DNA of 64,000 nt from NCBI GenBank assembly GCA_965263185.1, contig OZ253588.1, positions 1,025,454 through 1,089,453 on the forward strand, given 5' to 3'. Of this stretch, positions 23,397 to 34,908 are shown piece after piece. Position 1 is the stretch's first letter; each line of letters opens with the position of its first letter. The DNA comes from Dehalococcoidia bacterium. GTDB taxonomy: Bacteria > Chloroflexota > Dehalococcoidia > Lucifugimonadales > UBA2985. The notes beneath the pieces are model-generated. The model was not told the DNA's origin. It did not search any database and saw only the letters and a program-made list of their open reading frames with translations. Position numbers and translations under genes: made by a program.

Positions 23397-23629
23397 CAGA
23401 GACGCTGAACGCTGACTGTCAGGAATACGGCGTTCCTAACTGCCTTGAATTACAGATCGTGGGTCAGGCATTATTTTCCTGCTTCCAGCAGCGCGTTCTT
23501 CAGATATTAAACTATCCCGTTTAGGAGAATAGTATCCTAAGCCACGTTGGTGAAGGCGAGGGTATTGCTGACTACAAAAGGACATTCGCTCAGACGGTCT
23601 TTACGGATGGTTTGGTAATGGTTCCAGTG

Positions 23630-23664
23630 AAAAGGCCCCAGGCACAGCATGCCTGGGGCCTTTT
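23630..23664. terminator. bidirectional Rho-independent terminator
   Basis: aaaa-GGCCCCAGGCA-cagca-TGCCTGGGGCC-tttt: a perfect 11-bp GC-rich stem flanked by A4/T4, 40 nt beyond the stop of the DGQHR gene. Confidence 0.8.
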
Positions 23665-23704
23665 GTTACGAACCGAGGCAGAGCCACAGCTTCTTAGTGG
23701 CCCT

Positions 23705-24889
23705 TTATCTGCCTATCGCCTTGAGTATCGTCTCATCGCTCTGGGTCAGTTCCAACCCGGCTAGCTTCTTGAGGTAGGCCCTTAGCTGTATCCTAACCCC
23801 ACTTCTGGGAAGAACCTGATTACCAGAAGTGATAATGCCCTGCCACATAGGAGCATCCCGCCGCCAGTCGTAGGTCTCAGGATGGGTTAAGGCCTTTTTG
23901 ACAACCTGTTGCCAGCCATGTCTCTCTTTCTCCATAGCGGTGGCTATGAATTCTCCGATGCCCGAAACAACTCCAGAGTTCCAGTGCAAATAGCGGCTTC
24001 GTACAGGTGGCACTGACAGCGTGCCGTCAGCTGCCTGCTTCCATTCAGGGAAACATTCTGCCAGGGTGTCCCAGACCTGTAGCAAAAGCTGAACATACTC
24101 GTCCCTTAGACTAGGAGTATCAGTCCGGGAGGTTAGGTTTTCTTGGACCAATCCCGCTGAGTGGGCAGCTGAAATAATGGGGCTACTGGCTTGGTACACT
24201 GCTGCCAAAGTCAGTATGGCTTGCGAACCTGCCGGTACGGCTGAGTTCTCTAGGTCCACGCGGTCCCTTAGCAACTGGGAGCATTCTACGAGGGCTTGGA
24301 CAACCTTGTTTATGGCGTCTCTGTGATTGAAGAGTATGTCTAAGCTTTTCGTGGTCTTTTTGGCAGTTCTGTTGAGATCTGAAAATAGTTGTTGACCATG
24401 ACTAACGCTGGTGTATGGGAATAGTACTATCGTAATGCGTTCGTCAGCCAATTCAGGCGTTTCTTCGACCACCTTTCTTATCGCACCAAAGCGATGTTGA
24501 CCATCTACTATGATTAGGGGGTCTCTCTGATCTAGGGTTAACATCCCAATAAAAGATCCTTCTCCCTCTGGGCTGGCTGGCAACCACTCTATTGGTTTAT
24601 CGATACCATCTCTTCCATAAGTGCAGGTCAATGCGCCAAATCTATAGTCATCCGGGTTATTGCGAATGTACTGAGCGATCTCGGCAAAGCGGCCAGAAGA
24701 GGGAATCCTGTTTTCTCTCTCTTTCGGGGGTAGGTTTCTATCTGTGACCGTCAGATACCTAACCGCCACTGAAAAAGGCAAAGTGATAACGTAGTAGGTG
24801 GTTCCGCCCATTACTCCTTTTAGAGCAGGAGCGGTCATCTTCATTCCAGGGTCTGTCATTTGGCCAAGGGCTTCTTGTAGGGTTGTCAT
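23705..24889 (-). CDS. DGQHR-domain protein (DndB-like, ParB-fold)
   Basis: IIVDGQHRFGAI (the DGQHR signature) followed by QQLFSDLNRTAKKTT (the Q.F.DLN block of DndB-type proteins). 394 aa. AT-richer islet. Confidence 0.8.
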   Translation of the reverse strand: MTTLQEALGQMTDPGMKMTAPALKGVMGGTTYYVITLPFSVAVRYLTVTDRNLPPKERENRIPSSGRFAEIAQYIRNNPDDYRFGALTCTYGRDGIDKPIEWLPASPEGEGSFIGMLTLDQRDPLIIVDGQHRFGAIRKVVEETPELADERITIVLFPYTSVSHGQQLFSDLNRTAKKTTKSLDILFNHRDAINKVVQALVECSQLLRDRVDLENSAVPAGSQAILTLAAVYQASSPIISAAHSAGLVQENLTSRTDTPSLRDEYVQLLLQVWDTLAECFPEWKQAADGTLSVPPVRSRYLHWNSGVVSGIGEFIATAMEKERHGWQQVVKKALTHPETYDWRRDAPMWQGIITSGNQVLPRSGVRIQLRAYLKKLAGLELTQSDETILKAIGR

Positions 24890-24969
24890 TTTGTTCCTCC
24901 TAGTTTTCTATAATCTGAAACGTAAAGCGCACATCGCGCGGTTCAATCTCTCTTATATGAATTTATAAA

Positions 24970-25239
24970 TCATGCCACCTCCTTCAGCCGAGCGGCCACT
25001 ACCTGCAAGGCTCTCTGTAAATTCAAGGTTGAAATCTTAGCAGCAAGTCCACTTAGTGCCTCGGTCAACGTAGGTTCATGCGATTGCTGTTCTATAAGCA
25101 GCGGTTGTAGATTCCCGGCACCTATAGTGGTGTATGTGCCCTTGGGTCTGCTCGTCACTTGAATAATGGGTCTCCATCCACCAAGATCTGGATCACCAAC
25201 TCGGTCAATATAACTCACGTTGTAAGCACTGTCGCTCAT
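24970..25239 (-). CDS. hypothetical 89-aa protein upstream of the DGQHR gene
   Basis: ATG at 25239 is preceded by AGGAG 5 nt upstream. The ORF-track start at 25290 would overlap the promoter palindrome. No family recognised. Confidence 0.5.
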   Translation of the reverse strand: MSDSAYNVSYIDRVGDPDLGGWRPIIQVTSRPKGTYTTIGAGNLQPLLIEQQSHEPTLTEALSGLAAKISTLNLQRALQVVAARLKEVA

Positions 25240-25269
25240 GTACTCCTGCCTTCCTATATTAACTTTTGT

Positions 25270-25313
25270 GTATCGATACTCTATATACAACGTGAAGTAT
25301 ATACTATCGATAC
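25270..25313. promoter_or_regulatory. large palindromic candidate operator
   Basis: GTATCGATACTCTATATAC-aacgtgaa-GTATATACTATCGATAC. The arms are reverse complements apart from one indel and one mismatch. Each contains TATCGATA and a TATA(T/A)AC -10-like hexamer. It lies 31-74 nt upstream of the 89-aa ORF. Confidence 0.5.
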
Positions 25314-25569
25314 AACCATGTCAATAGGTTACGGAGATGATCTGCGGAACTTGGCAAACCGATAGAAGGCAGAAAATACCTATCCTTGGTTGCCAGAGCC
25401 GAAGTGCTGTACCAATGCAGTTTGCCTTTCCTCGAGATGCATCGCTATTGGCTGGACATTGGTATTCCTGACGTGTAGGGTCTAAAGTGCCAAGGGGTTG
25501 GTAATCCCCTCTAATGAGGTAATGTGTAACGCTGGAGTCCCTCAACCATTATCACAATAGGAGAATCCC

Positions 25570-27374: not shown

Positions 27375-28376
27375 TCAATCCGAAGGTTGGTCCTCTTCGG
27401 GTTGCTGGCGGTCGCCTGTATCGTCCTGCAACCGCCCTCCGGTCACATGGAGAAACACGTCGTCCAGGGTGGGAGTGCGCAGGGTCAGCTCCTGGATGGC
27501 GACCCCTCGATGGTCCAGGGCCAACGCAACGGCGCTTATCAGCGCCGCGCCGTTGCCGACGCTTACCGTCAGCTCGTTGCCATGCACCTCCACGCTGTTC
27601 ACCCGGCCTGTGCTCTTGAGCGCATCCACGGCTGCGTCTACGTCGCCGTCTACCTTGGCGATGATGAGGTCTGAGCCGCGGGCCCGCTTCAGCTCCTGGG
27701 GGGTACCCTGGACTGCCAGCCTCCCCCGGCTGATGATGCCGATTCGGTGGGCCAGGGCGTCCGCCTCCTCCAGGTACTGGGTGGTCAGGAAGATGGTGAC
27801 GCCCAGCTTGTCGTTGATGTCTCGCACCTCCTGCCAGACGCGGGAGCGGCTGACCGGGTCCAGGCCGGTGGTCGGCTCGTCCAGGAATAGGACCTCCGGG
27901 TTGTGTATCAGGGCTGCGGCCAGGTCAAGGCGGCGTTTCATACCGCCCGAATACGTGCCTATCAGCCGGTCCATAGCTTCGCCGATGTCCACCAGGTCCG
28001 AGAGGTCGGCGATGCGGCCGTTTATCTGCCTCCGCGACAAGCCGTAAAGCTGGCCCTGAAGCCGCAGCAGCTCTCGCCCCGTCTGCTTGTTGTCCAGGGC
28101 GGCGTCCTGGAGGGCCGCGCCTATCCGCAGTCGCACCTGGACTGGCTGGCGCACGGCGTCGTACCCGGCCACGGTTATGCTGCCGGACGTGGGCGCCAGA
28201 AGCGTGACCAGAATCCGTATGACGGTTGTCTTACCCGCGCCGTTGGGGCCAAGGAACCCGAAAATCTCCCCTTTGCGGACGTTCATGTCCACGCCGTCCA
28301 CGGCCTTCACGACGCCAAAGTGGCGCACAAGCCCTTTCACGGCAATGGCGTGTGTGTTTTCAGACGTGTTGGTCAT
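27375..28376 (-). CDS. ABC exporter ATP-binding protein (DrrA-like)
   Basis: GPNGAGKTT, YSGGMKRRLDLAAAL, LFLDEPTTGLD, TTQYLEEA. Confidence 0.9.
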   Translation of the reverse strand: MTNTSENTHAIAVKGLVRHFGVVKAVDGVDMNVRKGEIFGFLGPNGAGKTTVIRILVTLLAPTSGSITVAGYDAVRQPVQVRLRIGAALQDAALDNKQTGRELLRLQGQLYGLSRRQINGRIADLSDLVDIGEAMDRLIGTYSGGMKRRLDLAAALIHNPEVLFLDEPTTGLDPVSRSRVWQEVRDINDKLGVTIFLTTQYLEEADALAHRIGIISRGRLAVQGTPQELKRARGSDLIIAKVDGDVDAAVDALKSTGRVNSVEVHGNELTVSVGNGAALISAVALALDHRGVAIQELTLRTPTLDDVFLHVTGGRLQDDTGDRQQPEEDQPSD

Positions 28377-28419
28377 TCAGATGCAAGGTTGGAGCGCGCG
28401 TTGGGATTCCGGTCTGCCG

Positions 28420-29505
28420 TTAGTCGAACATCAGGACGGTCCGCGTTACCTCCCCGGCTTTCATGGCGCGGAAGGCCTCGTTGACGTCCTCCAGCCGGCC
28501 CCGGCGGGTGATCATCTCGTCCAGCCTCAAGCGGCCCTGTCTATAGAAGTCGATGAGCCTCGGCATATCCACGCGGAAGCGGTTGGAGCCCATCCCGCTG
28601 CCCTGAATCTTCCGCTCGCCCAGGAACATGCGCCCCTCTATCTCTATCTTCTGGCCTGCGGGTATCATGCCGACGATGGTTGCGGTTCCGCCCGGAATCA
28701 GGCAGTTGAAGGCCTGTTCGGCCGCCGTCTTGAGGCCAATGGCCTCAAAGGAATAGTCCACTCCGCCGCCGGTGAGGCCCATTATAGCGTCCACGGGGTC
28801 GTGAGATGAGGCGTCCACAACGTGGGTGGCGCCCAGGTCCAGGGCGTGGGTGAGCTTGGGTTCCACAACGTCCACGGCGATTATCTGCCTGGCCCCGGCG
28901 ATGCGCGCTCCCTGGACGGCGGCAAGGCCAACGCCCCCCAGGCCAAAGACGGCGACGGTAGACCCCGGCTCGATGCGGGCGGTGTTGATGACCGCGCCCA
29001 CGCCGGTTATTACGCCGCAGCCGATGAGGGCCGCCCGGTCCAGGGGCATATCGTCATCTATTTTGACCAGGGCGTTCTCGTGCACCAGCATCCGCTCCGC
29101 ATAGCTGGAGAGGTTGAACCCTTGTGTGATGGCGGCGCCGCTTCCGGCAAGGCTGAGGCGCGGCGGCTCCCCCTCCAGTCGGCGAGGCCGTTGGGAGCAC
29201 CGGCTGGGATGCCCGGAAAGGCACTGCCGGCAGACGCCACAGAAGACGGACAGGCACGATATGACGTGGTCGCCGGGCCGGATGTAGTCGACCTGCTCTC
29301 CAACCTCCTCCACGATGCCGGCGGCCTCGTGGCCCAGGATGGACGGGGTGACGGTGGGGTACAGCCCTTCCACGTAGTGAAGGTCGCTATGGCAGACGCC
29401 GCTGGCGGCGGTGCGGACTACCACCTCCCGCGCCATTGGCCTGTCCATGTCCACCTCTTCGATGGTCAAGGGAGTGTTGACGGCATGGAATACAGCGGCT
29501 TTCAT
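28420..29505 (-). CDS. zinc-dependent alcohol dehydrogenase (class III-like MDR)
   Basis: GVCHSDLH, GHEAAGIVEEVG, structural-Zn Cys cluster CGVCRQC, GLGGVGLAAVQGA Rossmann motif. Confidence 0.9.
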   Translation of the reverse strand: MKAAVFHAVNTPLTIEEVDMDRPMAREVVVRTAASGVCHSDLHYVEGLYPTVTPSILGHEAAGIVEEVGEQVDYIRPGDHVISCLSVFCGVCRQCLSGHPSRCSQRPRRLEGEPPRLSLAGSGAAITQGFNLSSYAERMLVHENALVKIDDDMPLDRAALIGCGVITGVGAVINTARIEPGSTVAVFGLGGVGLAAVQGARIAGARQIIAVDVVEPKLTHALDLGATHVVDASSHDPVDAIMGLTGGGVDYSFEAIGLKTAAEQAFNCLIPGGTATIVGMIPAGQKIEIEGRMFLGERKIQGSGMGSNRFRVDMPRLIDFYRQGRLRLDEMITRRGRLEDVNEAFRAMKAGEVTRTVLMFD

Positions 29506-29512
29506 GGCACAA

Positions 29513-29585
29513 CCTCACGCTGAGCGAGTTTTGCAGCCCATTATAGCACGACCGGACGGGCGTTTGCGCTAGTCGGCAACTTGGG
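29513..29585. repeat. 73-bp direct repeat, copy 1 (contains the ADH promoter/RBS)
   Basis: cctcacgctgagcgagttttgcAgcccattataGcacgaccggaCgggcgtttgcgctagtcggcaactt. Read on the minus strand it gives TGCTATAAT (29540-29548), then GTGAGG and the ADH ATG. It is repeated at 31857-31930 with 3 substitutions. Confidence 0.85.
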
Positions 29586-29606
29586 GCCTAGTGGGCTGGG
29601 ATTTCC

Positions 29607-30104
29607 TTACCGCCGCGCTCTCATTAGCTCCGGGCAAAGGAAATCTACCTCAATGCCGTGTTGTCGCAACTGAGCGTGGTAAGTCCACCAGTCGGTATCT
29701 GAGGCGTTCAACACCTTTGGCTGAGTCCCGCTTGACAGTGCCACGGCTACAAACTTGCGGTCGCTTCGGTCGAATGAACTGAGGGCAGGGTCGTCCGGGA
29801 ACTCCTCGAAGTCACGGTCTGCGTGATGATTCAAAGGGATTTTTCGGCAGTGCGACGGGTTTGCCTGGTTATCGTGGAGCCACTTGAAGAAAGAGTCACC
29901 AAGCCCAGGCTGTCCAGAGAAGCTGAGCCTTCCTCGGTATTCCTCAAGGATCAGGTTTCCGTCGTCCAAAAGGATCCGACATTCGTCACGGATGTGGCGC
30001 AAACGGCCTATGCACTTGAGTTTGCAATCTGGGCCAGCCTGTTCGGCCCTGCCATTTGCAACGACGGCAACATTGGTGTCCATGACTACCTCCGCCTTCC
30101 CCAT
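29607..30104 (-). CDS. PIN-like domain protein
   Basis: ATG at 30104 lies 2 nt after the ATPase stop (30107-30109). VVMDTNVAVVANG (first acidic residue), ILEEY, FDRSDRKFVAVA and NASDTDWW supply the four acidic positions expected of a PIN-type Mg-nuclease fold. Confidence 0.6.
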   Translation of the reverse strand: MGKAEVVMDTNVAVVANGRAEQAGPDCKLKCIGRLRHIRDECRILLDDGNLILEEYRGRLSFSGQPGLGDSFFKWLHDNQANPSHCRKIPLNHHADRDFEEFPDDPALSSFDRSDRKFVAVALSSGTQPKVLNASDTDWWTYHAQLRQHGIEVDFLCPELMRARR

Positions 30105-30106
30105 GC

Positions 30107-31507
30107 TCACGTAGAATCTCCCTGCCTTTTCAGCGCAGCTTCGCTCATGGCGGCAATCTCGCCGAACTGGTCGCCAAAGAAGTCTTTGGGCCAATTGGAG
30201 ATGTTCCCGTATTGGTCGACCTCAAGCTGGCTGACGCTTGAGCCTCCACTGTCATCTGCCGAGCAGAAATACAGGCCGACATCGTCCTTCTGTATCTCCT
30301 CTTCAGCGATACGACGCTGGAGCCTGCGAAGCAGATGCTCGCTGTGGCTCTCGAACAATACCTGTACATTATGATTCTTCCAGGTATCGATGAAGACATC
30401 GGCCAGGCCGGCCTGAGCAGAGGGATGCAGGTGAATATCGGGCTGCTCCAGAATCACAGTGGAGTGTTGCGGCACGTAGAAGCACAGTGCTAGCACGGGA
30501 ACAATCTGGGATACCCCAAAGCCGACGTCTGTGAGGAGGACTTCGGCTGAATGGGGAGACTTGCGCACCTTGACCTCGAACACCCGCTTGCCTTCAGCAA
30601 GCGCCTCGACTCGAAAGTCGTGAACCAGTCCAAGACGCTTGAGCCAAGCGGCTGCGTATTCGTCTATGGCAAGTTTGCGGGGGTTAGCGGCCCACTGCTT
30701 TAACTGACCTCTTTCTCGTGATGAAAGCAACGCGTCCACCAAAAAACCACCGTCCGTTCCCACATCGCTGGGTTGTACACGCGACCGGGTATAAGTGCGA
30801 AGTGGGGAGATACGGAGGGGGCCGAGGTAGTACAAATCTCGCAAGAGCGATTGCATTTCATGCTCGAGATTACGAAAGAAGAAGTTGTGACTCGAGTACC
30901 CCGAATTCGCCAAGTTTGGAAAGCTGTAAAACTTGGTCGAAGGCGGGAAATTGGTCGAAGGCGGGAAATTGGAGGTCCTAAAAATGTCCCAGTCATTACG
31001 AAATCTCAACTCGTTTGGGAGCGGCGGGGTCAAATGGTAGTCGGATTGGCCAAGATTGCGCCGCATCCCAATCTGCTGATCAGCTATGAGATAGGCCATT
31101 CTTTCCAGTATCAACGATTTCCCAGATCCTATGTTTCCTTCCCGTGACTCAACCTCGAATCCAATGTCGCTGCCTTCGAATATTATTTCCCTTTTAGAGT
31201 AGTCATCTGGTATTGTGAAAAAGGTCTTGGATTTCCAGGCGAGCGAAATCTTTAGATTTCGCGTAGTGTCGTGACCGTACACAACGCTCCCGAAGTCACC
31301 CAGGTCGACGGGTGTTTTTTCATCGCCGAAGTGGAAGACGCTCCCAAGGTCCGGCGAGTCGTCCGTCTGCTTCATCATCAGCAATCCTTGGTAAAGGCTA
31401 GTCTTGCCGGAGCTATTGGGACCAAAGAAGCCGGTGATGGGCTTTAGCGCAATGTCACCGGTGTCCATCCAGGATTTGAAGTTTTCGAGCCGCAACCGTG
31501 TCAACAT
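30107..31507 (-). CDS. ABC/SMC-type AAA ATPase (AAA_21-like, DUF3696-like C-terminus)
   Basis: LRLENFKSW...FFGPNSSGKTS (Walker A), signature-like DVGFGVSQ, Walker B VILEQPDIHLHP, H-loop FESHSEHLLRRLQRRI. The C-terminal block LEVDQYGNISNWPKDFF is, as I recall it, the DUF3696 region. SD GAGGAGG and a TATAAT (31532-31537) lie upstream. Confidence 0.75.
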   Translation of the reverse strand: MLTRLRLENFKSWMDTGDIALKPITGFFGPNSSGKTSLYQGLLMMKQTDDSPDLGSVFHFGDEKTPVDLGDFGSVVYGHDTTRNLKISLAWKSKTFFTIPDDYSKREIIFEGSDIGFEVESREGNIGSGKSLILERMAYLIADQQIGMRRNLGQSDYHLTPPLPNELRFRNDWDIFRTSNFPPSTNFPPSTKFYSFPNLANSGYSSHNFFFRNLEHEMQSLLRDLYYLGPLRISPLRTYTRSRVQPSDVGTDGGFLVDALLSSRERGQLKQWAANPRKLAIDEYAAAWLKRLGLVHDFRVEALAEGKRVFEVKVRKSPHSAEVLLTDVGFGVSQIVPVLALCFYVPQHSTVILEQPDIHLHPSAQAGLADVFIDTWKNHNVQVLFESHSEHLLRRLQRRIAEEEIQKDDVGLYFCSADDSGGSSVSQLEVDQYGNISNWPKDFFGDQFGEIAAMSEAALKRQGDST

Positions 31508-31656
31508 CTCAGAGCCTCCTCATCTAAGGAGATTATATCCATAGATGTGTGCGCATCCTGTCAAGCGCTACGCACCTTGGCCGTTCCGGGTTGGAGCCTT
31601 CCATAGTGGGGCCCGCTGACGATGGCAACACAGCGCTTGCTCTGCCTATTTTATCA

Positions 31657-31847
31657 CCTGCTCCTGTGCGTTGCCGTACGGGGGCAGGTACACCACTCAC
31701 ATCCACTGAGCTTAAGCGCTCCAGTCCACACATCAACGTATGTTCGACTACGGACTCATCGGAGACATGTCCTCAACGGCGCTTGTCGGGACAGACAGCT
31801 CCATCGATTGGCGTTGCTCCCTGCGCCTCGACTCTCCCAGCGGCTTT
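31657..31847 (+). pseudogene. duplicated 5' leader plus first 36 codons of the GH15 gene (fragment)
   Basis: 31657-31847 aligns with 32984-33174 at roughly 85% identity by eye. From the ATG at 31740 it encodes MFDYGLIGDMSSTALVGTDSSIDW, versus MFHYGLIGDMSSAALVGTDGSIDW in the intact gene. Homology ends 9 nt before repeat copy 2. Confidence 0.8.
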
Positions 31848-31856
31848 GATGGCGCG

Positions 31857-31930
31857 CCTCACGCTGAGCGAGTTTTGCGGCCCATTATATCACGACCGGA
31901 TGGGCGTTTGCGCTAGTCGGCAACTTGAGG
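31857..31930. repeat. 73-bp direct repeat, copy 2
   Basis: Same sequence as 29513-29585 with 3 substitutions. It retains an extended -10 (TGATATAAT on the minus strand, 31884-31892) pointing toward the ATPase/PIN pair. Confidence 0.85.
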
Positions 31931-32000
31931 CCGGGGGGCTGTGATTAGCGCCTGGCAGCCTTCATCCCCTTGTCCTCTCAGCGCCCTTGAATCAGGTTCG

Positions 32001-32753
32001 CTATTCGAAGGTGGACGCGTCTTCGCCTACCCACCTGAGGATGATAGCGTTCAGGGCGCCGTCAGCCTTCATCGATGCCAGGGCCTCGTCGAGCTTGCCC
32101 TTCAGGTCGCTGCCCTTGCGGACGCCAATACCGAGACCCCGGTCCAGCAGTATGGATGGGCCCACAATTGCCAACTGGCCCTCGTACTCCGCAACTTTCT
32201 CTACGCCATAGCCGTGGTCCACCAGGACGGCATCCACCTCGCCGTTGAGTACTGTTTCGGCCAAGTCTATCGAGCCGTCGAGCGATACGAAAGGCCTGCC
32301 GAGCTCGGTGAAGTAGTCGGAGTAGATGGTGTTTACGGTTGCCCCAATCGTGCCTTGGACGGCTTCATCGCCCTCGCCGGCCCTCGCCACGTACACAGAA
32401 GGGGTTGGCGGGTAGTACGCTTCTGTGAAGTTGATCAGCTCCTCCCGTTCGGCGGTGATGCTCATGCCGGCGAGGATCGCATCGAACTCTTCCGCCACGA
32501 GGTCGGGAATCATCGTTTCCCACTCGCTCAGGATCCACTCACACTTCAGATCGGCGCGCCGGCACAACTCGTCCCCCAGTTCACGCTCAAGGCCATCTAT
32601 TTCACCATCATCGTTAACGAAGTTGAAGGGATCGTAGTTGCCGTCAGTGGCTATCACCACCGTGTCCGCTCCCCCACATGCGGCCAGCAACGGCATGAGC
32701 ATCACCGCCAGGAGAAGCGCTCTAAGCGTGTGCGTGAACCGGCCTTTCAACAT
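32001..32753 (-). CDS. polar amino-acid ABC transporter substrate-binding lipoprotein (orphan)
   Basis: Signal/lipobox LLAACGG from the ATG at 32753. Family-3 SBP blocks: YDPFNF, FDAILAGMSIT.ER, VDAVLVD. No cognate permease or ATPase is adjacent. Confidence 0.8.
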   Translation of the reverse strand: MLKGRFTHTLRALLLAVMLMPLLAACGGADTVVIATDGNYDPFNFVNDDGEIDGLERELGDELCRRADLKCEWILSEWETMIPDLVAEEFDAILAGMSITAEREELINFTEAYYPPTPSVYVARAGEGDEAVQGTIGATVNTIYSDYFTELGRPFVSLDGSIDLAETVLNGEVDAVLVDHGYGVEKVAEYEGQLAIVGPSILLDRGLGIGVRKGSDLKGKLDEALASMKADGALNAIILRWVGEDASTFE

Positions 32754-33066
32754 CAACCCCCATCTCACTTGAGCGAGTACGCCGGATGCGCAGTTTAGGT
32801 CATTGTCGGGACAATTTGGCGGTCTTACGCATGTGCGTCCCCTCTTGCGAAGGATGATACACGACCGTAAGCAAGACATTCAAGAGCCGCTCCAGAAAGC
32901 CTGCATCGGATGTTGCAGACGGGGCGGAGTCCACATCCGCCCGCTCCCCGCTCGCGAAACGGCGTTGGTGGTTGAGAAATCCCCCTGCTCATTGCGCGTT
33001 GCCGTGCGGGGGTGATACACTCACTCCCATCCACTGAGCTTTAGCGCTCCGGTCCACACACCAACT

Positions 33067-34908
33067 ATGTTCCACTATGGACTCATAGGAGACATGTCCT
33101 CAGCGGCGCTTGTCGGGACAGACGGCTCCATCGACTGGTGCTGCTTCCCGCGTTTCGACTCTCCCAGCGTCTTTGCCGCCATCCTTGACCAGGAGATAGG
33201 CGGACGCTTCCGCATCAGCCCTGTCGGCTTCTGCCTTGACACCCGGCAGAGGTATCTTCACGACACCAACATACTGGAGACCACTTTCACCACAAGCGAC
33301 GGCATAGTCTCCGTCACAGACTTCATGCCCATTATAGAGGATGACGACGACAACCCGGAGACGCCGCCCAATGCCGACGACGAAATCCATCGCATCGTCA
33401 CCTGCCTGTCCGGGGAGGTTGACATGCGCTGCGATTTCCAGCCCAGGCACGACTACGCCCGCTCTCTCCCCGTCTTTCGTCCCATGCGCGGCCGCTCCGG
33501 CAACTCCGCCGTCCAGGCGCGTGGCGGCGGGCAGACCATGACGCTTGCCGCCAGCATCCCTCTCCCCTTTGACGACCGCGGCGTCACCTGCGACTTCACC
33601 CTTGCCAAGGGACAGACCGCCACGTTTGTCCTTGCGTACGGCAGCAGCCGTCCGGCCAGCCTGGAGCGGTATCGCACCGCCGAGAAGCTGGACCAGACCA
33701 GGCGCTACTGGCAGGAGTTGGTGGACAGAATGAACTACGACGGCCTCTGGCGGGACTCCGTAGTGCGCTCCTTCCTGGCGCTTCACCTTATGATGTACCG
33801 TTACACAGGGGCCATAGTCGCCGCGCCCACCACCAGCCTGCCGGAGACCATCGGAGGCTCGCGCAACTGGGACTACCGCTTCTCGTGGCTGCGCGACTCC
33901 AGCTTCACCGTCGATATTCTCTACCGGCTGGGGGACGACTACGGGGCCGACCGCTACATCAACTGGCTGCTGGAGCAGTGTCAGCTGAGCCGCCGTAAAA
34001 CCCGCATCGTCTACGGCATAACAGCCAGGTCATCGCTCAGGGAGTACACGCTCGACCACCTGCGCGGGTACGAGGACTCCCGTCCCGTCCGCATCGGCAA
34101 CGCCGCTGAACGGCATCTTCAGATGGACGTTTTCGGAGAGGTCATCATCTCCATACACTCCCTGCTTCTGCTCTACGGAGAGATATCGGCGGAAGCCTGG
34201 GAGATGGTCCACTCCCTGGCCGAAACCGTTATGGGCAACTGGCGTCGGAAGGACCGCGGCGTCTGGGAGGTCCGGGGCGAGCAACAGCACTTCGTGTATT
34301 CCAAGGTAATGTGCTGGGCCGGTCTCCAACGCGCCTCCCACATCGCAGACATCTTGGGTCACAAGCAACTGGCCGGCCGATGGTCCCGGACCGCAGAGCG
34401 CATCAAGGCAGAGGTACTGGATTCAGGATGGACATCCACCAAACAGGCCTTCCGGCAGCGATATGAAGACGACGCTCTGGATGCCTCAAACCTGGTCATC
34501 CCCTTCCTGGGCCTGTTGCCGCGCGACGACCCCCGCATCCTGCAAAACCTGGATGCCATCGAACGGGAGTTGGCCGACGGCCCAATGGTCTGGCGATACC
34601 TCCCGGAGGAGACGGACGACGGCCTGAGAGGCCAGCCCGAGGGCGCCTTCACCCTGCTCAGCTTCTGGCTAATCGGAAACCTCATATACACCGGCCAGAC
34701 CGACCGCGCCTTGGACTATTTCCACGAGATGATCACCAAGCGTGCCAACCACCTGGGCCTCTTCGCCGAAATGTTCGATCCGGCTACAGACCGGCAGCTG
34801 GGCAACTTCCCCCAGGGATACTCGCACATCGGCCTGATCCATTCCGCCCTGAACCTCTCCGGCTTCATCGCCAATACCGCCACCAGGCGCAGGCACCGCC
34901 CCCATTAG
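33067..34908 (+). CDS. glycoside hydrolase family 15 (glucoamylase/trehalase-like)
   Basis: N-terminal YGLIGDMSSAALVGTDGSIDWCCFPRFDSPSVFAAILD and catalytic-domain blocks AAPTTSLPE..GG.RNWDYRFSWLRDS and FSEM-type FAEMFD are characteristic of bacterial GH15 enzymes. Confidence 0.85.
   Translation: MFHYGLIGDMSSAALVGTDGSIDWCCFPRFDSPSVFAAILDQEIGGRFRISPVGFCLDTRQRYLHDTNILETTFTTSDGIVSVTDFMPIIEDDDDNPETPPNADDEIHRIVTCLSGEVDMRCDFQPRHDYARSLPVFRPMRGRSGNSAVQARGGGQTMTLAASIPLPFDDRGVTCDFTLAKGQTATFVLAYGSSRPASLERYRTAEKLDQTRRYWQELVDRMNYDGLWRDSVVRSFLALHLMMYRYTGAIVAAPTTSLPETIGGSRNWDYRFSWLRDSSFTVDILYRLGDDYGADRYINWLLEQCQLSRRKTRIVYGITARSSLREYTLDHLRGYEDSRPVRIGNAAERHLQMDVFGEVIISIHSLLLLYGEISAEAWEMVHSLAETVMGNWRRKDRGVWEVRGEQQHFVYSKVMCWAGLQRASHIADILGHKQLAGRWSRTAERIKAEVLDSGWTSTKQAFRQRYEDDALDASNLVIPFLGLLPRDDPRILQNLDAIERELADGPMVWRYLPEETDDGLRGQPEGAFTLLSFWLIGNLIYTGQTDRALDYFHEMITKRANHLGLFAEMFDPATDRQLGNFPQGYSHIGLIHSALNLSGFIANTATRRRHRPH

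Follow-up and report, generated by a model that had tools for sequence, protein, structure and literature searches.

A probable HEC-03 anti-phage gene pair at a strain-variable site in a Dehalococcoidia genome

Within the window, the 64,000-nucleotide stretch of a Dehalococcoidia genome analyzed here, two adjacent genes most probably form an intact HEC-03 two-gene anti-phage system (we put the probability at roughly 85%), in which an ABC ATPase would act as sensor or regulator and a VapC-like PIN protein as toxic effector. HEC-03, or Hma-embedded candidate 03, was described as an ABC ATPase with a VapC-like PIN by Payne, Hughes, Fineran and Jackson (bioRxiv 2024, 10.1101/2024.01.29.577857) and is included in PADLOC-DB v2; in E. 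coli it lowers the efficiency of plaquing, for which both genes are required, and is toxic upon IPTG induction (bioRxiv 10.1101/2024.01.29.577857). The initial annotation had read the pair as an ABC ATPase with a small PIN nuclease, arranged in the manner of PARIS or Septu and likely anti-phage, and this part is borne out by profiles, folds, linkage, and defence context. It had also taken the combination for a variant not yet described, which did not hold, as ATPase plus PIN is HEC-03 (Payne et al., bioRxiv 10.1101/2024.01.29.577857) and is present in PADLOC-DB.

As a type of system, the pair is therefore nothing new. Because the pairing is already catalogued in PADLOC and has been experimentally shown to block phages, we regard the locus, judged by its sequence, as an unexceptional member of an established family, one that PADLOC would annotate automatically as HEC-03; that this particular pair protects against phages is likely by analogy with the HEC-03 representative tested in E. 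coli. What the locus offers are leads for specialists rather than surprises: a natural case in which a single core-genome site, compared across almost identical genomes, holds HEC-03, HEC-01, or an IS element; a family-wide Walker B E-to-Q substitution, which bears on ATP binding vs. hydrolysis; a recurrent RNA ligase gene as a lead toward an RNA target; and homology to Menshen, which suggests a way in which the ATPase may hold the nuclease.

Genes and predicted proteins of the pair

The larger gene (Table 1) carries the open reading frame of the 466-aa ABC-type ATPase recognized at the outset, and every motif then listed was located: GPNSSGKTS (residues 29–37), GFGVSQ (329–334), ILEQPDIHLHP (352–362), and ESHSEHL (386–392), all four almost unchanged in an alignment of 71 family members. 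Pfam matches include AAA_15/AAA_21 (E 1e-19) and, at residues 405–452, the DUF3696 named in the initial annotation (E 6.7e-12). Both proteins of the pair match HEC-03 profiles over their full length in PADLOC, the check originally suggested. For the ATPase the profile is PDLC04148 (E 5.4e-129, 429 bits; residues 1–462 against profile positions 1–452 of 458), and the second-best profile is NsnB (198 bits, E 8.8e-59, residues 1–446). The label HEC-03A denotes the ATPase in Payne et al. and the small protein in the PADLOC profile. Top Foldseek matches of the ATPase AF2 model (mean pLDDT 78.7) were Septu PtuA, Rad50, SMC heads, and GajA (E 1e-11 to 1e-9, probability 1.00), which places the fold among ABC rather than AAA+ proteins, as in HEC-03; the modeled architecture is an SMC/Rad50/OLD-type head with a C-terminal DUF3696 helix. 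Confidence falls below a pLDDT of 50 in the loop at residues 167–190, the site of a 6-aa NFPPST duplication private to the source genome. The Walker B motif reads E-Q in place of D/E-E, as it does in 70 of the 71 family members.

The 165-aa reading frame of the smaller gene opens at the ATG at 30104; initiation at a TTG would give 195 aa, and the ATG is favored because homologues begin at or after it. The sole PADLOC match of the protein is the HEC-03 profile PDLC04147 (E 1.2e-41; residues 5–159, profile positions 2–153 of 159). Since it had no Pfam or NCBIfam match even at E-values up to 1, and a profile search against PDB sequences returned chance SH3 matches only, its assignment to the PIN proteins needed fold comparison. 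The AF2 model is a single domain (pLDDT 95.2) whose top Foldseek matches are all PIN-like, namely HARP RNase P, AF1683, VapC21, 7vwo (a second chain from an M. tuberculosis toxin–antitoxin complex), and the SMG6 PIN domain, at modest scores (probability 0.85–0.98, E 5e-3 to 0.1, TM 0.4–0.59). The acidic positions that the initial annotation had picked out in DTNV, EEY, FDRSD, and DTDW are D9, E55, D112/D115, and D136, invariant in 56 homologues, of which at least 90% also conserve D138. Their placement fits a PIN: strand 1 precedes D9, E55 belongs to the helix that follows strand 2, D112 lies at the N-terminal end of a helix, and strand 4 precedes D136. The confident model, the PIN-like matches, and the invariant D9/E55/D112/D136 together agree with the PIN fold first suspected, and the small protein is modeled with high confidence as a PIN-like fold with a putative four-acid active site. 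No homologue was detected in the phage genomes searched.

The stop codon of the ATPase gene is separated by the expected 2 nt from the start of the PIN gene (...ACG TGA GC ATG GGG...); the commonest junction in the family is a 4-nt overlap. In a survey of 80 genomes across many phyla, all 78 loci with room for it had the ATPase gene directly upstream of the PIN gene on the same strand, a strict form of the genomic linkage on which the first reading depended. Relative to the orthologues in a more distant genome (L001), dN/dS of the two genes is 0.14 and 0.16, sequence ratios that indicate purifying selection on the cassette. The insert is AT-richer, as had been noticed, with a GC content of 0.51–0.56 in the cassette vs. 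0.58–0.66 in the flanks, and GC3 is 0.63–0.64 in the cassette vs. 0.81–0.83 in the flanking alcohol dehydrogenase (ADH) and GH15 hydrolase genes. Homology with the orthologous L001 locus reaches window position 31560, within the leader, and the leader sequence is unique up to ∼31657, where a copied GH15 fragment begins. A scan for promoters and terminators gave nothing above shuffled expectation, and the leader held no sigma-70 consensus, a test that is uninformative for Chloroflexota.

TABLE 1. Coordinates of the gene pair and associated sequence features in the window.
Feature	Position	Strand	Description
Repeat A, resident copy	29493..29604	.	First 12–13 nt of ADH gene (antisense) plus ∼100 nt upstream
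HEC-03 PIN-like nuclease gene	29607..30104	(-)	165 aa; ORF, PADLOC profile, alignment, AF2, Foldseek
HEC-03 ABC ATPase gene	30107..31507	(-)	466 aa; ORF, Pfam, PADLOC profile, AF2, Foldseek
18-nt tandem duplication	30930..30965	.	In-frame NFPPST repeat within variable ATPase loop
Non-coding leader of cassette, presumed promoter	31508..31656	(-)	Part of strain-specific insert
Repeat B, fragment copy	31657..31848	(+)	∼80 nt upstream plus first 110 nt of GH15 gene
Repeat A, second copy	31838..31939	.	Dead fragment; ADH start codon CAT -> GAT (+ strand)

The insertion site and its repeats

The site between the ADH and GH15 genes is a strain-variable defence hotspot. The two closest relatives lack the cassette here, where one of them, the sister genome L082, carries HEC-01 and the other an IS element; genomes with flanking genes that are 98–99% identical thus differ in whether they have the pair. 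Within the window no other defence genes adjoin the pair, whose neighbors are the ADH gene, a solute-binding protein gene, and the GH15 hydrolase gene; non-coding DNA, gene fragments, and the solute-binding protein gene lie upstream of the ATPase.

Direct repeats had been reported on either side of the insert, and positions 29513–29588 do match 31857–31932 at 95% and bracket it, but a 190-nt copy of the 5′ region of the GH15 gene lies between the second copy and the cassette. The resident copy of repeat A forms the left edge of the variable segment, homology with L082 stopping at 29604. The repeat B fragment is 87–91% identical to its resident copy at 32985–33175 and is fused to the second copy of repeat A through the microhomology CAGCG(G/T)CTTT. 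The repeats are a duplication or recombination junction assembled from pieces of the two flanking core genes at a microhomology of 10–11 nt. We rejected a mobile element with att sites or a target-site duplication, since the repeats are copied 5′ ends of the two flanking core genes in a head-to-head junction; no integrase or transposase was found in the window's insert. A remnant of the solute-binding protein gene in genome L081 suggests that this cargo is ancestral, and an ADH-adjacent HEC-03 in L001, with a dS similar to that of the ADH gene, suggests that the clade has had HEC-03 for a long time. The incoming cargo may have been either HEC-03 or the solute-binding gene, as both histories yield the identical final structure and both fit.

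Defence neighborhood, proposed mechanism, and rival explanations

Related loci have a defence-island context. At least 12 pairs are placed between Hma genes (∼15% of sampled loci in Hma systems), and immediate neighbors include HmaB (10), HmaC (7), and genes of MADS, RM, Dnd/Ssp, and DISARM systems. In 9 of 78 loci the next gene directly after the PIN gene encodes an RNA ligase, and the same three-gene version occurs on an Aeromonas plasmid, NZ_AP022291.1, at 62255–64883; HEC-03 pairs were also found on conjugative plasmids beside Hok/Gef and AbiEii genes. A universal third gene was rejected because no neighbor family exceeds 10 of ∼72 loci, as was HEPN_Swt1 as a separate recurrent neighbor, its matches being the N-termini of HmaC.

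In the mechanism that we propose, oligomers of the ATPase would keep the PIN nuclease inactive, probably clamped between paired DUF3696 tails as in the prediction for Menshen NsnB–NsnC, until a phage-derived cue altered the ATPase's ATP-bound state; once freed or activated, the PIN protein would cut RNA (tRNA, rRNA, or mRNA), so that translation would stop and the infection would be aborted. Three elements of this scheme are what we infer: that the PIN protein targets RNA, that it docks with DUF3696, and that the switch is ATP binding and not hydrolysis. The docking idea comes from the similarity of the ATPase to Menshen NsnB, for which a published prediction has paired DUF3696 segments gripping the PIN-like domain of NsnC (PMC12065111). 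The natural loss of the catalytic glutamate (E-Q, 70/71) suggests that the ATPase may be an ATP-binding switch and not a hydrolase, and the recurrent RNA ligase as third gene points to an RNA target. Some PIN-like proteins cut DNA. A more ambitious reading, which we think rather doubtful, would make HEC-03 a catalytically active, sensor-less sibling of Menshen with an ATP-binding switch, dormancy reversible by the ligase, and cassette movement free of a recombinase. Paired DUF3696 tails of the ATPase would then clamp an active PIN RNase; the RNA ligase, co-transcribed in about one in eight loci, would mend self-inflicted RNA cuts, giving reversible dormancy and not suicide; and a circle excised at the microhomology would enter the core-gene hotspot by homologous recombination with no recombinase.

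A toxin–antitoxin or addiction module, in which the ATPase serves as an atypical antitoxin to a PIN toxin and the pair chiefly stabilizes DNA segments or plasmids instead of countering phages, would agree with a PIN fold nearest to VapC toxins, with the toxicity of the E. coli homologue when induced, and with the conjugative plasmids on which the pair sits beside Hok/Gef and AbiEii genes. We nevertheless consider it unlikely, given that phage defence needs both genes in the published assay (bioRxiv 10.1101/2024.01.29.577857), that ∼15% of sampled loci are inside Hma systems, and that a 466-aa ATPase with invariant nucleotide-binding motifs, encoded upstream and conserved as much as the toxin, is unlike any VapB. 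TA-like control and abortive infection can coexist.

A truncated or minimal Menshen, consisting of NsnB and NsnC without the NsnA DNA sensor, is considerably less probable still. The NsnB profile match and DUF3696 of the ATPase would suit it, as would the PIN-like domain with which the Menshen effector opens (PMC12065111), but the HEC-03 profile scores far better (429 vs. 198 bits), the pair has no DUF262/NsnA gene beside it in the window, and that family is not among the recurrent neighbors of related loci; moreover, the small protein has neither an NsnC profile match nor a C-terminal toxin domain, and it keeps the D-E-D-D residues lost in Menshen inPIN domains (PMC12065111). An orphan DndB-like gene at 23705–24889 is the sole candidate in the window for the DUF262 role. 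Hardly credible is a housekeeping pair for repair or RNA processing, comparable to a Rad50/SbcC-type ATPase with its nuclease: the ATPase fold does resemble Rad50 and SMC heads, and the PIN protein does resemble RNase P-like HARP and rRNA-processing PINs, but the pair comes and goes between genomes with 98–99% identical flanking genes, has an atypical base composition, is scattered through many phyla at high identity, is linked to defence genes, and has a homologue with a published defence phenotype (bioRxiv 10.1101/2024.01.29.577857).

Comparison with known systems

The pair differs from Gabija: GajA profiles match the ATPase at its N- and C-terminal motifs only (E 1.9e-11), the ATPase lacks a TOPRIM domain, and no gene nearby encodes a helicase (GajB). 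In PARIS, the ABC ATPase AriA reportedly keeps hold of a small nuclease until a phage protein is sensed, and tRNA is the reported substrate of the effector AriB. The layout of ATPase and small nuclease is shared with our locus and there is a partial AriA profile match (E 4.5e-22, residues 313–392), but the similarity is confined to conserved C-terminal ATPase motifs, and PADLOC gave no AriB (TOPRIM/DUF4435) profile match at the locus, the partner being PIN-like. Septu (PtuA/PtuB) and retron-associated PtuAB likewise combine an ATPase and a small nuclease in two genes, and PtuA is the best structural match of the ATPase (8eea, E 1.1e-11). Septu uses an HNH nuclease as effector where the present pair has a PIN protein, no HNH protein is encoded at the locus, and the NCBIfam PtuA model NF041760 gives 15.6 bits, its cut-off being 500. 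With VapBC type II toxin–antitoxin systems the pair shares the PIN fold and four-acid active site, VapC21 being among the top structural matches, but the partner is a large ATPase and not a VapB DNA-binding antitoxin, and the small protein lacks a sequence match to Pfam PIN families.

Menshen is alike in its NsnB-type ABC ATPase with C-terminal DUF3696, in a partner with a PIN-like domain, and in a non-canonical Walker B (EN in NsnB, EQ here). It differs in having NsnA, a ParB-like DUF262 protein with a DNA-binding domain, which is not encoded directly upstream of the ATPase here, and in that NsnC joins an inactive PIN-like N-terminal domain to a C-terminal toxin domain, whereas the partner here consists of a PIN alone and retains D-E-D-D. 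From HEC-03 as described, the pair departs in lying outside any Hma system, alone between housekeeping genes of a Dehalococcoidia genome, and in the private 6-aa duplication of its ATPase. It resembles HEC-03 in its two adjacent, co-oriented genes, one for an ATPase of ∼455 aa and one for a PIN of ∼160 aa, in profile matches along their whole length, and in predicted folds that both agree with those given by Payne et al. (bioRxiv 10.1101/2024.01.29.577857).

Identity of the gene pair

PADLOC assigned both proteins of the cassette to HEC-03 (Hma-embedded candidate 03). The ATPase matched PDLC04148 (named HEC-03B) over residues 1–462 (E 5.4e-129), and the small protein matched PDLC04147 (HEC-03A) over residues 5–159 (E 1.2e-41), its sole match in PADLOC-DB. 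The component names are swapped between sources: in the paper the ATPase is HEC-03A and the PIN protein HEC-03B, and PADLOC gives the name HEC-03A to the small-protein profile (159 positions) and HEC-03B to that of the ATPase. HEC-03 was described as an ABC ATPase plus a PIN-domain protein resembling VapC ribonucleases; work by others on a homologue established that a representative in E. coli lowers phage plaquing by orders of magnitude, that both genes are needed for defence, and that the system is toxic, so that IPTG induction was avoided (Payne et al., bioRxiv 10.1101/2024.01.29.577857). Every HEC-03 membership feature that could be examined here was found in the window pair, which is an intact copy, from an uncultured member of the Dehalococcoidia, of a system type that had been described before. 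The initial annotation was right about the biology and wrong in presenting the pairing as undescribed.

The ORFs and their junction (ACG TGA GC ATG) bear out the proposed layout of a 466-aa protein followed, after a 2-nt spacer, by one of 165 aa. The insert is AT-richer than its surroundings, as had been noted, with a GC content of 0.51–0.56 (vs. 0.58–0.66) and a GC3 of 0.63–0.64 (vs. 0.81–0.83 in the flanking ADH and GH15 genes).

Features of the cassette and its flanks (positions in the window)
Feature	Position	Strand	Remarks
ABC-2 exporter pair and HAD hydrolase			beyond ADH
Zinc alcohol dehydrogenase (ADH)	28420–29505	−	flanks cassette
ADH first codons and upstream region	29493–29604		resident copy
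Small-protein gene	29607–30104	−	165-aa ORF; ATG at 30104, stop at 29607
ATPase gene	30107–31507	−	466-aa ORF
Copy of GH15 upstream region and first 110 nt	31657–31848		87–91% identity to resident GH15 region 32985–33175
Second copy of ADH 5′ fragment	31838–31939		start codon destroyed
Family-3 solute-binding protein	32001–32879	−	other side of cassette
GH15 hydrolase	33067–34908	+	other side of cassette

Predicted folds and active sites

Searching a large protein collection with the small protein (E ≤ 0.001) returned 1595 homologues, nearly all of 155–170 aa among the matches listed. In an alignment of 56 homologues D9, E55, D112, D115 and D136 were invariant and D138 nearly so; the four PIN-like acidic positions originally proposed (in DTNV, EEY, FDRSD and DTDW) are among them. 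Pfam gave no match for this protein, and a sequence-profile search of the PDB gave no genuine one. The predicted model (mean pLDDT 95.2, pTM 0.90) is an alternating strand–helix domain in which D9 lies at the end of strand 1, E55 in the helix following strand 2, D112 at the N-terminus of the helix following strand 3, and D136 following strand 4, placed in the model as a PIN fold would place them. Foldseek E-values against the PDB were weak (best 5e-3), with probabilities up to 0.98 and TM-scores of 0.4–0.59. The best seven matches were all PIN-like, including bacterial and archaeal HARP RNase P (7e8k, 7e8j), AF1683 (1w8i), a Pyrococcus PIN protein (1y82), VapC21 (5sv2) and another M. tuberculosis toxin–antitoxin complex (7vwo). 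The eighth was the SSU-processome chain 7mqa_SL, which we take to be a PIN-domain protein, and there were matches to the PIN domains of SMG6 and Regnase as well. The PIN assignment is therefore supported by predicted fold and active-site pattern, and not by sequence-family membership.

In the ATPase, Pfam identified AAA_15 and AAA_21 (E about 1e-19) and, in the C-terminal block where it had been anticipated, DUF3696 (residues 405–452, E 6.7e-12). All four motifs read from the sequence are present and nearly invariant in 71 aligned family members: Walker A (G-x-N-S-S-G-K-[TS]), a signature-like motif (D-V-G-F-G-V-S-Q), the Walker B region (h-h-h-E-Q-P-[ED]-I-H-L-H-P) and the H-loop (E-S-H-S-E-H). 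Since its predicted model (pLDDT 78.7) matched Septu PtuA (8eea, E 1.1e-11), retron-associated PtuA, Rad50 and SMC heads, and GajA, the protein is an ABC ATPase of SMC/Rad50/OLD type. The sole match in a PDB sequence search was the class 1 OLD nuclease 6p74, in which IIEEPEMYLHP aligns to ILEQPDIHLHP, so a glutamine (Q355 of E354–Q355, window 30442–30447) occupies the catalytic-glutamate position; h-h-h-E-Q is found in 70 of the 71 members. In ABC ATPases, a change from E to Q at the catalytic glutamate permits ATP binding and head engagement and blocks hydrolysis. The conserved E-Q suggests that HEC-03 ATPases bind ATP without hydrolyzing it efficiently. Menshen NsnB is similar in having E-N at this position (PMC12065111). 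An 18-nt tandem duplication (window 30930–30965) adds an in-frame NFPPST repeat to a disordered, variable loop; these 6 aa are private to the window copy, being missing in the 90%-identical homologue P0121 and every other homologue inspected.

Linkage elsewhere and the ADH|GH15 site

Pairing of the two families is obligate. Scanning one genome per species gave 80 loci with a relative of the small protein (43–84% identity), spanning Chloroflexota, Planctomycetota, Pseudomonadota, Cyanobacteria, Acidobacteriota, Verrucomicrobiota, Bacteroidota, Myxococcota and others, and in 78 of them the small-protein gene comes directly after the ATPase gene, on the same strand, the other two beginning at a contig edge; a 4-nt overlap is the commonest junction (39/78). 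Among 143 immediate neighbors were HmaB (10, directly upstream), HmaC (7, directly downstream), HmaA (2), and MADS, AriA-like, type I and type IIG RM, Dnd/Ssp and DISARM proteins, and at least 12 loci have the classic Hma-embedded arrangement. In nine of the 78 loci (L019, L024, L058, L070, L073, L074, L077, L078, L079) a PF09414 RNA ligase gene begins within about 50 nt past the PIN gene; the HEC-03 preprint makes no mention of a ligase (bioRxiv 10.1101/2024.01.29.577857). A conjugative plasmid of Aeromonas veronii likewise carries the three genes for ATPase, PIN and RNA ligase together (ligase at L161:9526–10227), with AbiEii and Hok genes as neighbors. We found the PIN homologue on 12 plasmid records, adjoining a "DUF3696 domain-containing protein" in 10, and on no phage record. 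In a Chloroflexaceae locus (L062:6517–7866), a second AAA_15/21-type ATPase gene, a tblastn match to the window ATPase, directly follows the pair.

The closest genomes to the window locus are Dehalococcoidia MAGs. Two of these, L081 (OZ244924.1) and L082 (OZ252024.1), keep the ADH…GH15 synteny (proteins 98–99% and 96% identical) and lack HEC-03. The slot holds HEC-03 and an intact solute-binding gene in the window (29605–32911), an AAA_21 ATPase and a DUF4276 protein in L082 (5867–7901; HEC-01 profile matches 2.1e-88 and 1.8e-38), and an rve-family transposase (IS) with solute-binding gene remnants in L081 (6130–7912); window/L082 homology stops at window 29604 and 32912. The intergenic site between ADH and GH15 behaves as a strain-variable defence hotspot. 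In a more distant MAG (L001/L087; ADH 83% identical), HEC-03 orthologues lie beside ADH in the same orientation, with about 80% nucleotide identity to window 27390–31560. Low dN/dS values against L001 for the ATPase (0.14, dS 0.72) and PIN (0.16, dS 0.54) genes place both under purifying selection; ADH gave 0.15 (dS 0.73).

The direct repeats reported to bracket the insert do exist; a role as attachment sites or a mobile-element signature is ruled out by their make-up, as they are copies of the ADH and GH15 5′ ends joined at microhomology. The dead fragments (window 31657–31939) are fused head to head in CAGCG(G/T)CTTT. Circularisation or tandem duplication of a segment reaching from ADH codon 4 to GH15 codon 37 would leave such a head-to-tail junction; the segment may have formed at the microhomology and then entered the chromosome by homologous recombination. 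The insert contains no recombinase gene.

In another relative, a 364-aa protein encoded upstream of the ADH orthologue (L084:5208–6302) matches PADLOC candidate PDC-S11 (E 1.4e-16), which again hints that defence candidates gather near ADH. A second low-GC islet in the window (23500–25500, GC 0.46–0.51) separates nuoA/B-like genes from the HAD gene. Its gene at 23705–24889 (minus strand) codes for an orphan protein of the DndB family (DGQHR/ParB-like), with no other dnd genes nearby and no tblastn match in L081 or L082.

Possible mode of action and related systems

The ATPase probably sequesters the PIN protein and, given the E-Q in Walker B, may be a switch operated by ATP binding. AlphaFold 3 models of NsnB, the related ATPase of Menshen (NsnABC), place two DUF3696 domains around the PIN-like domain of NsnC (PMC12065111); given that clasp in a related ATPase, the DUF3696 tails are a likely PIN docking site. 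The resemblance to VapC and the repeated presence of an RNA ligase gene suggest that the PIN protein acts on RNA, and the three-gene variant hints at RNA cleavage and repair. Translation would likely be arrested, or the infection aborted, along the lines put forward for PARIS and Septu.

With the system type already known, the worth of the locus lies in the alleles at its hotspot, the E-Q of Walker B, the variant with an RNA ligase and the link to Menshen. The ATPase also matched Menshen NsnB (8.8e-59) and PDC-M55A more weakly, and AriA, GajA and AbiLi partially. The window pair differs from each relative: it lacks the NsnA and NsnC that define Menshen, the TOPRIM protein AriB that defines PARIS and the GajB that defines Gabija, and, compared with Septu, it has no HNH protein and its ATPase scores 15.6 for PtuA, where the cut-off is 500.
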